Origin: Escherichia coli 042
GTDB lineage: Bacteria > Pseudomonadota > Gammaproteobacteria > Enterobacterales > Enterobacteriaceae
Reading direction: 5' to 3' (one strand)
Assembly: GCF_000027125.1 (NCBI RefSeq)
Contig: NC_017627.1
Length of the DNA stretch: 64,000 bases
Shown: one piece after another, positions 2,565 to 46,060 of the stretch
How positions within the stretch are numbered: the stretch's first letter is position 1
Layout of the letters: every line of letters begins with the position of its first letter
The notes under the pieces: generated by a model
The model's input: the letters and a program-made list of their open reading frames with translations, nothing else
Told to the model about the DNA's origin: nothing
The model's database searches: none
Position numbers and translations under genes: made by a program

Positions 2565-5500
2565 TCAGTCTCCGCCCAGGGTTTTCTCTTTCTGCAGGTC
2601 ACGGACCATATCCCGCTCCATCTGCTGCAGACGCTCCTGCAGCAGATTTTCCCGGGCAACCTCCCGGACCGCTTCCCGCTCCCGTTGTGATTCACGCAGC
2701 ACACTCTCCGGCAGTGCGGTTTCCCGTTCAGAAGTGGCAGTCCGGTCACGTTCCTGCCCGGCAATCTCCCTGACAGCCTGCTCTGTTTTGCCATCCGGCA
2801 GGTCAGGTTTGTTCTCTGCCATTTTACGGACAATTTCATCTGCGCGACGTTCCGTTTCACGGCGGATGGCCTCTTCAGCCTGCCGCTGTGCCAGCACTTC
2901 AGCTGTAACCGGTTCACCATTTCCGGCCCCCGGCTGGACGCTGTTATCCGGGATATCCCCCCACACGCGGCCACCGGTGATGGCACCGGGATTCCACGGA
3001 CGACCTTCACCGGCAATTCTCACCACCACACCGCTGTCAGGATTATCACGGGCAATCCGGACACCATCCTGCATATTATCAGCCAGCAGGCTTTCTCCGT
3101 TACGGCTGCCCTGCAGGGCCACGAACTGCGCATCCCCGCTGCCCTTCACCCGTCCTTCACCGCTGAATCCCCGCAGCCCGTTTCCGTCATCCGTGGTCAG
3201 TGGGTTCAGCCAGATACCGGCGGACCTGCCGTTACGGTCAAACGCCGGCAGTGCCACATACGGCTGCGGATATTTACGTCCCGGTGCAATAAACCGTGCA
3301 GGGCTGTCTCCCCCGGCCAGCCCTGCCTGACGGAGAACGGCACGGCCTGCCGCCACGTCCCGCAGTTCCCGTGCCGTACTGAACAGCCGCTCTGCATTCA
3401 TGACCTCCCGGTCCGGTTTCGGTTCAAACACATCGTGGGCTGTTCCTTTCTGTACGGCATTGTTAATGGCATCCGTCCAGCCCTGACGGTTATCGGTGTA
3501 CACCTGCACATGCTGCTTCATACGCGACAGGGCCACGTAGGCTGACTCAAAGCCTGCCATCAGTTTCCGGTTACCTTCCGTGCCTTCAAGCGCGATGGCA
3601 AAGGTTTCACTCGCCCCCTGCGCACCGTGGGCGGTGATGGCATAGGCCAGGTCAATATGTTGCTCTGCCCGCTCCTGTCCGGGGCGAATCACCCGGGTCT
3701 GCTGTCCGTCCGACAGCGTGACACTGTCACCGGAAACCGCTGTCACCGTCCAGACGCTGTTGGCCACATAACCGCGCTCCCGGTCACTCTTCGTGAAGCG
3801 CATCCGGTCGCCGGTTCCCACCCGGATGGTGTCCGGGGTGTACAGTGTGACGCCTTCAGCCACCGCCTCCCGGGGCGAAATCAGCCGCGTGTTACCTTCC
3901 GCATCCTGCAGGGTTATCAGCCCGTCATCCTTACTGACACCGGCAATCCGGTGATACACATTATCCACCAGGGCAAGGGCATCCGGGTTATTCTCCCAGG
4001 TGGAGAGACGACGCAGTTCCCCGTCGCGTATATTCGCTGTATTCAGGACAGGCACCATGACCTGCTCTTTCCCCAGCTCACCGGCCTTTTCCCGTGCATC
4101 ATGAATCATGCTGTTCAGTACGCGCCGGTCCTCATTCAGGTGCGTGACAATCAGCGTCTGCTCCCGTGCTTCCGGTGTCCTGCCGGTATAGTCGCGGACA
4201 ATGGCTTCATACAGTGTCATGGGGACATCCGGGAAAGCCTCGCCTTTCAGCATCGCCTTCTGCTGCGCTTCTGCCAGTTTCGCTTCCTGGCTGTGACTGA
4301 ACTCCGTCACGGAGTGCTCCGGTGCCCATGCGCCCTCCAGACGTGGCACCTGAGACGGTTTCACACTCTCAAGCCCGGACAGTGCCCTTTCCACATCCCG
4401 GTTAATCAGGCTGTATACCGCCTCCCGCAGTTCCGGCGTCTGACGCACAATCTCCTTCATGATGACCACATCGGCAGCACTGCGCGTCTGCTGGAGACGG
4501 AAAGGCTGACCGGGCGCGATGGCCTGCAGCTGGTCCGTGTCACCGCTGGCCACAGCACGACCGCCACCGGCCGCAATCAGGGCGTATGCCCGTGCCATGT
4601 CGGTATTGCCCACCATTGAGCTCTCATCGAGCAGGAACAGCGTGTTGCTGAAATCCGGCGTTTCTCCGCTGCGCTGCTGCAGCTGCGTGTCATGCAGAAA
4701 GGACGCCAGCGTCTGTGCATCCACGCCGGCGCTGCGCATCTCACCGACCGCACGGTGCGTGGGCCCCAGCCCCACAACTCGGGGACGCTCACTCGCCGGC
4801 AGCATGTTCACGGCTGACATCACCGCCCGGAACTGTGTGGTCTTACCCACACCGGCATAACCCTGTACCACCGTGAAACGGTCGGACGTTTCCAGTATCA
4901 TGCGGGTGGCGGCACGCTGTCCTGATGTCAGTTTCTCCATGAGTTCGCCAGGTACTCTCTCCATCAGCGGCGTGACCGCCTCCTTACCTTCGAGAATATG
5001 GCGAAGAATGCTCTTTTCTGCCTCATACGACGCACGGGAAACCAGCAGGCCTGTGCCATAGCCTTTTGCCACATCCACATACAGTAAATCACCGCGTTTT
5101 ATCTGCGCATTGATTTCCCCTCCCAGTTCAGTAAAACCGGTTCCTTCTGCAGCAAACGACTTCGCCTCTGTCAGCAGGTCCACCATGCTGAAGGCCAGGT
5201 TTTTACTTTCCAGCACAGGAAGGGCCAGATGAATGGCCTGGTGTGCCGGCGTGTGCAGCCCGGCTTTCTGCAGACTGATAGCGGTTTCCAGCGATGTCTC
5301 ACCGGCCCGCGCCTTTATCTGCTCAGAAACCACCGTAAAGGAGGGATGGCGGGCAAGTTTTTCCGCAGTACGGGTTTCATCCAGTGAGGAATACAGCCGG
5401 ACATCACGACCGCTGCGGGCCAGACCGTTCAGGGTGGCGTTGTCCATTGCCATCTGTGTGACGGAGGCAAACACCGTCGCACTGTCACTGACGGAATGCC

Positions 5501-36467: not shown

Positions 36468-36483
36468 AATTCCTCCTGTATCT

Positions 36484-36944
36484 GATGTTTTCAGCCCCCA
36501 TCATCTGTTGAGTTTCGGGAGCCGCGGTTTTGACGTTTTGCGGGGACCTGCCTTTTGTTCCCTCCGGTATTCACCATCACCTGTTTGAGAACCTTCGCCG
36601 CAAGGGGCATCACTGCCACGGCCTGACGCACCTGTCCTGGGCAGAACGCAAAATTTTTTACCGGGTTTTAGGTAAAAAATTTTGTGGTCTGTTCATTTAC
36701 CCTGGACAGTCAGTGCGGCAGGTTGTGGCTGTATCAGCCCCCGGCGACAGGGGCTTAAACAGGTGAATGGCACCGGACACAACAACGGGCAGGGACCCGC
36801 CGCAACGACGTGAAGCGCGGTTTGCGAAACGGCGTTGCGCCTTACATCCCGGCGGCCTTTTGCCGGGATGCCAGGAGCGCAGGCCACGGCGCGACAGAGG
36901 CGGCGCGACCGGAACGGTCGCTGCAAGCCCGGGGTTTCGCGTCA
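36484..36944. repeat. Frpo-like repeat A (putative single-stranded DNA promoter element)
   Basis: Near-identical to 42053-42506 and 45451-45900; internal palindromes such as aaaattttttaccgggttttaggtaaaaaatttt. Confidence 0.7.
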
Positions 36945-37316
36945 GGGATGGAAGCCCGCCAGGGGGACGCCCGGAAAAGACACTGCCAGGAGAACAACAA
37001 AACAGACAATAATCAGGGCAGCAGTAATCAGAGTCAGAACAGGAGGAAAAAGAGAATAATCAAAGGGAAGGTGATGTGATTTCTGACAGGTCATAAACAG
37101 AGAAGGCGGGGGAAAAGAACGGGCGCCGCAGGCGCGCGTTCTTCCCCGTTCCCGGAGGGAAACGGCCTTCCTGGCAGTCTGGTTGTTCATGCCCGCACAA
37201 TGCCAGCAAGGAGAAAGGGGCCACCGGCGAACCAGCAGCCCCTTTATAAAGGCGCTTCAGTGCAGTCAGACCAGCATCATCCCTGAAAAGGCGGGCCTGC
37301 GCCCGCCTCCAGGTTG

Positions 37317-37478
37317 CTACTTACCGCCGGATTCGTAAGCCATTGTTGCCGTAACTTCCCTGTATCCGTCCTTCAGCCGGACTTCGCACAGACGATTCCG
37401 GGTCAGGAATGTGAATATCAACAACGTGCAGCACACGATTAATACGCACCAGATAAGGGCGTTTCCCGGTAGTTTCAT
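37317..37478 (-). CDS. hok: Hok/Gef-family membrane toxin (flmA/hok-like)
   Basis: 53 aa [53 protein letters not shown] with AGGAGGAG SD; not in the supplied ORF track because it is nested in the mok-like frame. Confidence 0.85.
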
Positions 37479-37536
37479 GGTTTACTCCTCCTTGCAATTT
37501 GCACGGTAAGAGGCCATACTGACGTGGACTAGACAT
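37321..37536 (-). CDS. mok: Mok-like overlapping reading frame
   Basis: 71-aa ORF overlapping hok in another frame. Confidence 0.45.
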
Positions 37537-37560
37537 GCAGAGGCCTCGTGGGTTAATGAA
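37485..37560 (+). ncRNA. sok: Sok-like antisense RNA (approximate)
   Basis: Plus-strand promoter-like ttgcaa-17 bp-catact opposite the mok start; ends not determined. Confidence 0.3.
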
Positions 37561-37685
37561 AAATTAACTACGGGGCTTTTGTCCTTCTGCCACACGACAC
37601 GGTAACAAACCACCTTCACGTCATGAGGCAGAAAGCCTCAAGCGCCGGGCACATCATAGCCCATATACCTGCGCACTGACCACAC

Positions 37686-38033
37686 TCACTTTCCCTGAAA
37701 ATAATCCGGTCGTTCAGCCAGTTCACGGGCTATCAGTTCATCCGCAAACAGTGGTGCATGCCTGTTGATACGTTTCTCCAGATTCCGCCGTCGTACCGCA
37801 GCCTTACGTTCTTCGCTCCAGCGGCGCACCGGGCGGTCAGAAATAAAATCCAGACAGACCGCATACCCTGCTCCGGCAACCCAGCGTGACATAACGGATG
37901 CCGGTGCAGGCTGCCCCGCCTCCACCACTTCTGAAACCAGTTCATGCTCGCCAGGACAGGGATAAGGCAGTTTCCAGCGCAGTGAGTAACGCCACTTCAC
38001 GCCGCCTCCCGGAGTTTGTTCGGCACCATCCAT
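37686..38033 (-). CDS. Hypothetical ORF overlapping the 3-prime end of psiA
   Basis: 115-aa GC-rich ORF; may be non-coding hok mRNA leader. Confidence 0.25.
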   Translation of the reverse strand: MDGAEQTPGGGVKWRYSLRWKLPYPCPGEHELVSEVVEAGQPAPASVMSRWVAGAGYAVCLDFISDRPVRRWSEERKAAVRRRNLEKRINRHAPLFADELIARELAERPDYFQGK

Positions 38034-38716
38034 CGCTCCATCTCACGGACGGCATGACCGGCCTCCCTTGCCGCCATACCAGCCTCTGCGATGACCTGCC
38101 AGAACGGCATATCCTGCCACTGCCAGCGTTCCATTCCGGCCAGTGACGGGAAACGCTCGCCCCACTGCCAGAACAGGGTTTCCAGGTCATGCTCTGCCAC
38201 CCGGTCACTCCAGCGTGCATGCCAGCTTCCAACTGTTTCCGGCGAATGGAATGCCAGTTCGACTTCAGCCTGAGCGACCAGCGCCTGGTACGCACGGGCT
38301 TTCTGCTCTGCCTCCCGTGCCTGCTGGCGGCTGTACTTCTGCATGACCAGCGCGGATTTATGGCGACTGCGCTCCCTGACGCGGAACCGCACCGACGGAA
38401 ACAACCGCTCTGCTGCATCACCGGGAAGGGGAAGGAGGCAGACCTCGCCCTGTGTTTCAATCAGCACATCGACGGCATACAGCCACTGAAGACGGCTGCC
38501 GTGCAGTTCTTCTGCGGTCAGGGATGGCATGAAAAATCGCAGGTCAGACAGCGAAATCCTGCGGCTTCCGTTCAGACAGCGGAAAAACGCTCCCGCATAC
38601 GGATATTCCGCCAGCGTGTTTCCCTGATGGCGGCGTTTTTCCGTCTCCGCCACCGCCCGCCATGCGGCCTGTTGCTCTGCGCTGAGGGGAACCAGTGTCT
38701 GTGATCGTGCGCTCAT
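37997..38716 (-). CDS. psiA: PsiA
   Basis: 239 aa [32 protein letters not shown]..., matches F PsiA from memory. Confidence 0.95.
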
Positions 38717-39147
38717 GCCTGACCTCCTTCCGCCATCAGGATATGAATGATGTCGTTAACGCTGTACCCCTGCGCATCCAGTGACGCCGCCAGTGCCAGT
38801 GAATGGCTGACAGCTTCCGGTGCAAACCGCCGCTGCACCTGAACCACCGCAAACGGCTCACCACCGGCATTCACCAGAACCAGCACCCAGACCTGAGAGA
38901 CATCGCCCGGTGAACATAACGCCAGGTGAAAACATTCGTGGGCAGGCGTGAAACGGACCTGGACGGGGAAAAATCCACCAAACTCGCTGCCGTACTCGCC
39001 GTTCATCGTCCAGTTGTCCGGCGCATCCAGTTCCCGCATCACGGCGTGTGTCAGCTCACGACGTTCATCACTTCCGGCAGCCCGGATATCTTCATATTCC
39101 TGTGCGCTCATGGTCTGTAATACATTCAGGGTCAGTTCAGTTTTCAT
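38713..39147 (-). CDS. psiB: PsiB anti-SOS (RecA-inhibiting) protein
   Basis: 144 aa [40 protein letters not shown]... Confidence 0.95.
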
Positions 39148-39201
39148 CACAGTATCTCCCTTGCTGCCGCCCCGTCTCCGGCGGGGCGGTGTGGTTGTTC
39201 A

Positions 39202-41507: not shown

Positions 41508-42035
41508 TCAGAACGGAATGTCGTCATCGAAGTCATACGCGGGTTCAGACGGCTGCTGAGGCTCGGGCTGCGCGGCCTTACGTCCACGGCCTTTCGTTTT
41601 CGCGCCACCTTTTTTCAGTTCCGGCTGTGATTCCGGCTGAGGCTGACCGCTGAACTGTTGCGCCTCTTCCGGCTGAGTCTGAGTACCTGCGGCACGTCCC
41701 AGCATCTGCATGGTGCCCGTGGTCTTAACAAGAATTTCGGTGACGTAACGGGTGATACCGTTATCCTCCCAGCTACGGGTGCGAAGCTGACCTTCGATGT
41801 AGACCTGCGCGCCCTTGCGCAGATACTCACCAGCCACTTCCGCGAGCTTGCCGAACAGCACCACGCGATGCCATTCTGTCTGCTCCCGCATCTCCCCCGT
41901 CTGTTTGTCACGCCAGCTTTCTGACGTGGCCACCTGCAGGTTTGCCACTGCGCCCCCGTTGGGGATGTAACGGATTTCCGGATCTTTTCCCAGACGACCG
42001 ACAAGAATGACCTTGTTAATGCCACGAACTGCCAT
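41508..42035 (-). CDS. ssb: Plasmid single-stranded DNA-binding protein
   Basis: 175 aa from [23 protein letters not shown]..., acidic tail DFDDDIPF. Confidence 0.95.
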
Positions 42036-42052
42036 GATGTGTCTCCTTCTGT

Positions 42053-42690
42053 TGATGTTTTCAGCCCCCATCATCTGTTGAGTTTCGGGAGCCGCGGTTT
42101 TGACGTTTTGCGGGGACCTGCCTTTTGTTCCCTCCGGTATTCACCATCACCTGTTTGAGAACCTTCGCCGCAAGGGGCATCACTGCCACGGCCTGACGCA
42201 CCTGTCCTGGGCAGAACGCAAAATTTTTTACCGGGTTTTGGGTAAAAAATTTTGTGGGCTGTTCATTTACCCTGGACAGTCAGTGCGGCAGGTTGTGGCT
42301 GTATCAGCCCCCGGCGACAGGGGCTTAAACAGGTGAATGGCACCGGACAGAACAACGGGCAGGGACCCGCCGCAACGACGTGAAGCGCGGTTTGCGAAAC
42401 GGCGTTGCGCCTTACATCCTGGCGGCCTTTTGCCGGGATGCCGGGAGCGCAGGCCACGGCGCGACAGAGGCGGCGCGACCGGAACGGTCGCTGCAAGCCC
42501 GGGGTTTTCACGCATCGGACCGTAGCGACAGCCCGAAACCGCGCCAGCGGGTTCGGCGGAGACTGGCGGGTGCGCCAGCAGCTGCCTGTCGGAGTCGGGC
42601 CTGACGACCGGATGCCGCCAGGCAGCCGGGAGCCGAAGGTGCGCCCGGCAGACAGGACAACACTGCAGTAGTCAGAATCAGAGCGGCAGG
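42053..42690. repeat. Frpo-like repeat B, immediately upstream of ssb
   Basis: Near-identical to repeat A over about 450 bp and to repeat C over about 600 bp. Confidence 0.7.
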
Positions 42691-45215: not shown

Positions 45216-45450
45216 AAATGCATCCTTATGACTGTTGACTGGAGCCGCAAAAACTGTTCGTGCAGTCTCTGCAGCATGGATTAAGCAGGTTCCTGACCTG
45301 CTTTTTTCATATCTGCATCTGACGCTTTCCGGTGTTTTCCTCCTTCTGTTCCTGCGTTCTCATTACCTGCCAGCCGGATGACTGACAGAACACATAAATG
45401 CGTATTGCCGGAGCCTGAAATAAATCCTGATTTTTAAAGAACATCACCCG

Positions 45451-46060
45451 TTGAGTTTCGGGAGCCGCGGTTTTGACGTTTCGCGGGAACCTGCTGCTGT
45501 ATTCCCTGTGGTATGAACTTCACCCGTTTGAGAACCTTCGCCGCAAGGGGCATCACTGCCACGGCCTGACGCACCTGTCCTGGGCAGAACGCAAAATTTT
45601 TTACCGGGTTTTGGGTAAAAATTTTTGTGGGTTGTTCATTTACCCTGGACAGTCAGTGCGGCAGGTTGTGGCTGTATCAGCCCCCGGCGACAGGGACTCA
45701 TACGGGTGTGTGGCACCCGGCAGGCAATGAGCAGGGGCCCGCTGCAACGACGAAGAGCGCGTGCGCGAAACGGCGTTGCGCCTTACATTCCGGCGGCCTT
45801 TTGCCGGGATGCCGGGAGCGCAGGCCACGGCGCGACAGAGGCGGCGCGACCGGAACGGTCGCTGCAAGCCGGGGGTTTTCACGCATCGGACCGTAGCGAC
45901 AGCCCGAAACCGCGCCAGCGGGTTCGGCGGAGACTGGCGGGTGCGCCAGCAGCTGCCTGTCGGAGTCGGGCCTGACGACCGGATGCCGCCAGGCAGCCGG
46001 GAGCCGAAGGTGCGTCCGGCAGACAGAACAACACTGCAGTAGTCAGAATCAGAGCAGCAG
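45451..46060. repeat. Frpo-like repeat C
   Basis: Shares about 600 bp with repeat B including the tail ...cactgcagtagtcagaatcagag. Confidence 0.7.

Follow-up and report, generated by a model that had tools for sequence, protein, structure and literature searches.

A probably intact hok/mok/sok toxin-antitoxin module in the leading region of an IncF-type plasmid of Escherichia coli 042

Identity and extent of the hok/mok/sok locus

In the window that we analysed, a stretch of 64,000 nucleotides from Escherichia coli 042, the leading region of an IncF-type conjugative plasmid very probably carries an intact type I toxin-antitoxin module of the hok/mok/sok kind, the counterpart of flm in F and of parB in R1. 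Such a module is already known and is an ordinary textbook plasmid-addiction system. All its sequence elements were found to be present and intact, both alternative folds of the mRNA formed, and the elements were conserved in other plasmids. A first-pass annotation made from the letters alone had proposed a Hok/mok/sok-like post-segregational killing module at this place, and every sequence feature that it named is present in the window. Its proposal agrees with matches in Pfam, NCBIfam and Rfam, with the RNA folds and with the position next to psiA; killing would follow by analogy with the known systems. The interval given for the module (37317-37560) contains hok, mok and part of Sok, but the whole locus is wider and extends over about 37208-37682.

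The toxin gene hok lies on the minus strand (37478..37317) and encodes 53 amino acids. Its product matched Pfam HOK_GEF (PF01848; E=5.7e-16, 58.3 bits for a cut-off of 22, model positions 1-42 of 42) and NCBIfam NF007279 (Hok; 103.7 bits for a cut-off of 73, model positions 1-51 of 52), so that the 53-residue Hok-family gene described earlier is recognised over the full or nearly full length of both models. The frame runs without frameshift or premature stop. The strong Shine-Dalgarno sequence attributed to hok was recognised as AGGAGG at 37492..37487 (minus strand), 8 nt before the ATG. When the window was searched with the toxin by tblastn, hok was the sole Hok-like ORF; a further gene of this kind, such as srnB, did not turn up there.

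The leader frame mok (37536..37321, minus strand) encodes 71 amino acids in another frame than hok. It matched Pfam DUF5431 (6.2e-37, 126 bits) and the NCBIfam equivalog NF010277, 'modulator of post-segregation killing protein', over its whole length (141.6 bits for a cut-off of 110, model positions 1-71 of 71). The hok gene had been described as nested inside this mok-like frame. The two frames do overlap, but the nesting is not strict, as the hok stop lies 4 nt past the mok stop. The Shine-Dalgarno region of mok, GAGGCC (37547..37542, minus strand), is situated 7 nt upstream of the mok ATG and is also the core of the predicted Sok target. In mRNA numbering, mok starts with its AUG at +111, hok extends from its AUG at +169 to its stop at +330, and translation of mok is expected to be coupled to that of hok.

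Promoters, transcripts and alternative folds

To follow the untranslated parts of the locus, we used an alignment of the window with flm of F (NC_002483) and eight other plasmid homologues, IncI2 and IncU plasmids included, with a mean column identity of 66%. In these 10 sequences the untranslated regions were far better kept than the coding part. A promoter scan detected the hok/mok promoter, TGGTCA-18-TATGAT (9/12 consensus matches), at 37682..37653 on the minus strand, and this block is kept in F and in the eight other plasmid homologues. The full-length hok/mok mRNA is predicted to span 37646..37210 (minus strand), both ends being placed indirectly. The +1 would lie at about 37646, as judged from the promoter spacing, from an Rfam match that begins one base further upstream (37647) and from the conserved GGCGCUUGAGG, and the 3' end was predicted from a conserved hairpin described below.

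The Rfam family RF01794 matched 37647..37476 on the minus strand over the entire model (positions 1-157 of 157) with 95.2 bits, for a gathering score of 59. This family is named 'sok antitoxin', yet it matches the sense strand of the hok mRNA and ends at the hok AUG. In practice, RF01794 models the hok leader, which holds the complement of Sok, and its naming could mislead strand assignment in automated annotation. Rfam matches nearby that remained below threshold (Betaproteobacteria-1, CsrC and hvt-mir-H) were dismissed as chance.

Four short boxes that could pair in alternative ways were located on the minus strand. At the 5' end of the mRNA, tac (translational activator, GGCGCUUGAGG, 37646..37636) can pair either with fbi or with ucb. 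The ucb box, AGCCCC (37577..37572), is the anti-Shine-Dalgarno sequence for mok and can pair with the mok Shine-Dalgarno region or with tac. The dcb box (downstream complementary box, GGCCUC, 37515..37510) pairs with the mok Shine-Dalgarno region only in the fold of the truncated mRNA. Finally, fbi (fold-back inhibitory, CUGAAGCGCC, 37260..37251) ends at +396 and can pair with tac. In the minimum free energy folds of both the 396-nt and the 437-nt transcripts, nt 1-7 and 9-10 paired with nt 387-396 (tac with fbi) and nt 71-77 paired with nt 98-104 (ucb with the mok Shine-Dalgarno region). The tac-fbi pairing was also present in the centroid of both transcripts. The 437-nt fold reached -185.3 kcal/mol (z=-5.1), and z was about -5 for both lengths. 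In the minimum free energy fold of a 361-nt trimmed form, tac was paired with ucb instead (nt 1-7 with nt 69-75) and the mok Shine-Dalgarno region with dcb (+100..+105 with +132..+137). In a nascent transcript of 35 nt, tac was sequestered in a local hairpin. Structure prediction, which had been proposed as a check on the module, found in this way both the fold-back of the 5' end on the 3' end and the switch to tac-ucb and Shine-Dalgarno-dcb pairing on 3' trimming. Metastable, closed full-length and open truncated conformations have been described for the hok mRNA of R1, and the three folded states obtained here match those published for it (PMC9841398).

The tac box was invariant in all 10 aligned homologues. 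The nine tac-fbi pairs were likewise all invariant, with 100% pairing in the 10 homologues, which is conservation without covariation: because these pairs never vary among the sampled homologues, they lend no covariation support. When the full-length structure was mapped onto the alignment, 91% of the cells were paired, compared with about 40% when the partner columns were slid, a contrast that is inflated because the window sequence itself was the source of both structures.

Two conserved hairpins follow the hok stop. The first, a stem-loop of GGCGGGCGCAGGCCCGCC followed by UUUU (37307..37286, minus strand), is predicted to close the processed (Tr) hok mRNA as its terminal stem. Its stem covers +340..+357 (37307..37290) and the UUUU reaches +361; it folded with -21.5 kcal/mol (z=-4.4) and was 100% paired in the 10 homologues, with compensatory changes. 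This is the hairpin that the first-pass annotation had taken for a terminator. The hairpin and its UUUU are indeed there, but the role of terminator was rejected because of the presence of fbi downstream and of the equivalent stem of R1, which is assigned to the 3' end of the processed mRNA. Transcription is not expected to end at this hairpin because fbi, 26-35 nt downstream, must be transcribed for fold-back inhibition. In R1, the Tr-hok mRNA, which is 3'-processed and translatable, ends in the stem G345/C358, and this stem shields it against 3' exonucleases (PMC9841398). By analogy, the active, processed hok mRNA is predicted to end with the hairpin at 37307..37286. The second hairpin, AAAGGGGCUGCUGG-UUCG-CCGGUGGCCCCUUU followed by CUCCUU (37245..37208, minus strand), lies downstream of fbi. 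It folded with -23.8 kcal/mol (z=-4.4), and its 14 pairs were 98.6% paired, three of them being changed on both sides among the homologues. Transcription of hok probably terminates at this hairpin. Neither of the two hairpins was called by the terminator scan, the second one being overlooked because of its short T-run, and the 3' end assigned to the primary transcript is therefore tentative. The scan did report terminator-like sites at 37135..37123 and 37437..37425; these were rejected as parts of the module, and the second sits inside the hok coding sequence.

On the opposite strand, inside mok, a promoter-like sequence had been noticed for a Sok-like antisense RNA. We located it as TTGCAA (37492-37497), a 17-nt spacer and CATACT (37515-37520), that is 37492..37520 on the plus strand. 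This candidate Sok promoter is weak, with 8/12 consensus matches, and it was left uncalled by the promoter scan because it falls below the 9/12 threshold. It is supported mainly by its alignment with TTGCGC-17-TATCCT of F, which we take from the Gerdes-laboratory literature to be the functional sok promoter of F. Sok itself is predicted as an RNA of about 57-64 nt at 37526..37582 (plus strand), with ends placed by homology, and it would be expressed from the 8/12 promoter. The predicted RNA consists of an 11-nt single-stranded 5' tail GGACUAGACAU, a long hairpin and CUUUUGU, and it folded with -29.6 kcal/mol (z=-5.7). Its sequence is exactly complementary to hok mRNA +65..+121, and spans the mok Shine-Dalgarno sequence and start codon.

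These elements would fit the following mechanism, in which we infer from the literature on R1 and F where the transcripts end, that the 3' end is processed, that RNase III acts, that Hok is toxic and that the plasmid is stabilised. The weak promoter at 37682..37653 would give rise to a stable hok/mok mRNA starting at about 37646, and the 5' tac box would be kept in a local hairpin as long as the transcript is nascent. In the finished transcript, tac would pair with the 3' fbi and the mok Shine-Dalgarno region with ucb, so that the full-length mRNA would be neither translatable nor bindable by Sok. Slow 3' exonucleolytic trimming would then remove fbi and halt at the GC hairpin 37307..37290, tac would pair again with ucb, and the mok Shine-Dalgarno region would be freed. 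Ribosomes on mok would permit the coupled translation of the 53-residue Hok membrane toxin. In cells carrying the plasmid, the short-lived Sok (plus strand, about 37526..37582) would bind the activated mRNA and lead to its degradation, by RNase III if it proceeds as in R1. After plasmid loss, Sok would be gone first and the cell would be killed.

Comparison with other Hok systems and distribution among plasmids

The closest described counterpart is flm of F (flmA/flmB/flmC, 'F leading maintenance'), which occupies the same position in the same orientation, just downstream of psiA (PMC9849209), with the ssb-psiB-psiA block on one side and the oriT-proximal genes on the other. Both loci share one architecture, with the promoter, tac, ucb, mok, hok, the 3' stem, fbi and the downstream hairpin. 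The untranslated regions of flm are near-identical to those of the present locus, whereas the coding part is much more diverged: on alignment, FlmA of F (52 aa) was 75% identical to the Hok protein found here (53 aa). The two loci also differ in the 5' tail of Sok, which is of the GUCUAAGCAU type in F and predicted as GGACUAGACAU here, and in the -10 box of the Sok promoter, TATCCT in F and CATACT here. Finally, F lacks the 104-aa ORF (about 245 bp extra) that was found here between psiA and the hok promoter.

The regulatory logic of hok/sok (parB) of R1 was reproduced here by folding (PMC9841398). In R1, a cis-antisense Sok spans the mok translation start, as is predicted for the present locus, and the positions of the elements are close to each other in the two mRNAs: the mok AUG is at +116 in R1 and +111 here, the hok AUG at +174 and +169, and the terminal stem is G345/C358 in R1 and the 3' stem +340-357 here. 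This comparison relied on published positions and on plasmids that we take to carry the R1-type Hok protein (WP_001372321.1). The R1 locus has a different Hok allele from that of the window. The systems srnB of F, pnd of R483/R16 and the chromosomal hokA-E of E. coli belong to the same Hok/Gef family and share its general design, in which a fold-back mRNA with a mok-like leader is combined with an antisense RNA (bioRxiv 10.1101/2025.08.07.668861). They are much more distant, NCBIfam HokA giving only 33 bits, below its cut-off of 89.

The 521-bp region matched at least 5,000 plasmid records, mostly from conjugative plasmids (IncF for the most part) of Escherichia, Klebsiella, Salmonella and Shigella. 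Among the matches listed, 17 were at least 99% identical and about 4,200 were 80-90% identical. The 17 records with at least 99% identity are annotated as carrying a Hok family toxin. In RefSeq, near-identical plasmids have a Hok protein of 40 aa that starts from an internal GTG (position 37439 of the window; 37317-37439). This call drops the first 13 residues, while the alignments to the family models start with the ATG at 37478, which is preceded by the strong Shine-Dalgarno sequence. Annotation of mok, Sok, tac, fbi or the 3' stem was found in none of the records inspected, and the RNA parts (Sok, tac, fbi and the 3' stem) make up most of the functional locus. The first-pass annotation had also stated that the module was missed by the ORF track, which is plausible because the hok ORF is below the usual 60-aa threshold. 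More generally, automated annotation under-reports small toxin genes or shortens them, either because they fall below common ORF-length cut-offs or through an internal GTG start. The presence of an addiction module helps to explain why plasmids of this sort, frequently carriers of resistance or virulence genes, persist stably; beyond correct annotation, the significance of the locus is slight.

Leading-region surroundings and alternative roles

The position downstream of psiA, as in F, was verified: psiA (38716..37997, minus strand; Pfam PsiA, 2.3e-38) is on the same strand as hok and upstream of it. Further upstream are psiB (39150..38713) and ssb (42074..41508), also on the minus strand, with a ParB-like gene between ssb and psiB. 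The order on the minus strand is ssb, ParB-like gene, psiB, psiA, hok/sok and DUF932, followed by SLT on the plus strand, traM and traJ with FinP. From ssb to traJ, this gene order is that of the leading region of F. The module is flanked by direct repeats of about 465 bp (36471-36937 and 42044-42507) that are 98% identical. A third direct copy, 90% identical to the first, was observed at 45442-45878; the copies measure about 440-467 bp and are non-coding. In the opposite orientation, too, the first copy gave a weak match to each of the other two (about 68%), an indication that the element is internally self-complementary. The three repeats look like single-stranded-DNA promoters of the Frpo/ssi type, and the many short 'ORFs' in 36500-37000 are probably spurious. 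In F, two Frpo copies that are 92% identical flank flm, and Couturier et al. place flmAB between these two ssDNA promoters (PMC9849209); the window differs from F by having apparently three repeats instead of two.

This setting bears on an alternative in which the module is intact and has a main job other than classical post-segregational killing, namely in conjugative entry and establishment, where it could penalise recipients that destroy the plasmid or guard the DNA between the ssDNA-promoter repeats against recombinational deletion. Phage exclusion and plasmid-plasmid competition are further options of the same kind. We regard such a main job as unlikely, even though several observations are in line with it. 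Within the leading region, the module shares its orientation with ssb, psiB and psiA, and it lies between the two 98%-identical repeats; for F, flmAB has been proposed to safeguard the Frpo1-Frpo2 segment (PMC9849209). Leading regions show an enrichment of toxin-antitoxin genes, hok/Sok included, for which a part in establishment has been suggested (PMC11541004; bioRxiv Hok survey). As to phages, hok/sok on a high-copy plasmid protects against T4 (bioRxiv 10.1101/2025.08.07.668861, introduction). However, all these roles share one molecular mechanism, and therefore they would add to post-segregational killing and not replace it. Moreover, flm is a maintenance function of F (PMC9849209), plasmid-borne hok loci mediate post-segregational killing (bioRxiv 10.1101/2025.08.07.668861), and nothing in the present sequence separates the roles.

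A more specific idea, which we offer as speculation and think unlikely, is that the allele group found here forms a separate Sok-specificity group and could act at conjugative entry. The group is characterised by a Hok protein 75% identical to FlmA and by the CATACT Sok promoter, the rest of the leader resembling that of F. The 5' tail of its Sok matches that of plasmids which we take to be R1-type. A role at entry could arise from the leading-region position, in which the module has the orientation of the genes expressed from ssDNA promoters: the hok-sense RNA can be made from the incoming strand, and Sok only after second-strand synthesis. If this were true, recipients degrading the plasmid after its entry would be killed, which would amount to an anti-defence or establishment function rather than a pure segregational addiction.

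An intact addiction module is also favoured over a decayed or silent relic, in which the ORF would be recognisable and the killing lost as in chromosomal hok loci; we hold this to be very improbable. The candidate Sok promoter is off consensus (8/12), Hok has diverged by 25% from FlmA, and the hok loci of chromosomes reportedly do not bring about post-segregational killing (bioRxiv 10.1101/2025.08.07.668861), all of which would suit a relic. Against this, tac, ucb, the mok Shine-Dalgarno region, dcb, the hok Shine-Dalgarno sequence, the 3' stem and fbi are all intact and in register, and both ORFs are full length. The CATACT -10 box is also found in two other aligned homologues, pHK08 and a K. 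quasipneumoniae plasmid, and is therefore not a private lesion. In addition, 42 of 45 diverse Hok homologues were toxic when tested (bioRxiv Hok survey). A dead Sok promoter beside a live hok would be lethal, and thus such a state would not persist. Lastly, a chance small ORF with a hairpin and no toxin-antitoxin function has a negligible probability: this GC-rich region abounds in short ORFs and GC hairpins (35 ORFs of at least 20 aa within 2 kb), but this reading is refuted by the family matches, found in two protein libraries and one RNA library and all far over the curated thresholds, and it is also opposed by the thousands of homologous plasmid loci and by the structure kept across homologues.

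Around the intact hok/mok/sok module, the neighbouring small ORFs (104, 82 and 98 aa) had no match in PADLOC, Pfam or NCBIfam. The 104-aa ORF (38000..37686, minus strand) is located between psiA and the hok promoter, and its GTG start and the psiA stop overlap in the sequence GTGA, an arrangement that hints at translational coupling. By tblastn, it was found at full length in about 3,600-3,680 plasmids, mostly from Klebsiella, with 60-80% amino-acid identity. In GenBank records it is often labelled 'theronine dehydrogenase' (sic), which is probably a propagated annotation error. The 82-aa ORF (37190..36942, minus strand) lies directly downstream of the likely hok terminator hairpin. The C-terminal half of its putative product is hydrophobic, and the underlying DNA is conserved in F. 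The terminator-like hairpin at 37135..37123, GCGCCTGCGGCGC with a T-run, is inside this putative ORF.

At a distance from the module, two CopA-like antisense RNAs were detected at 58913-59002 (plus strand) and 63839-63928 (minus strand), both with 97.8 bits, inverted and about 5 kb apart. Between them are two ALIL pseudoknots (frameshift elements of the IS3 family) at 60998-61114 and 62237-62353, on the minus strand. From this layout, it seems that an IncFII replication-control region has been duplicated or inverted and brackets insertion sequences.
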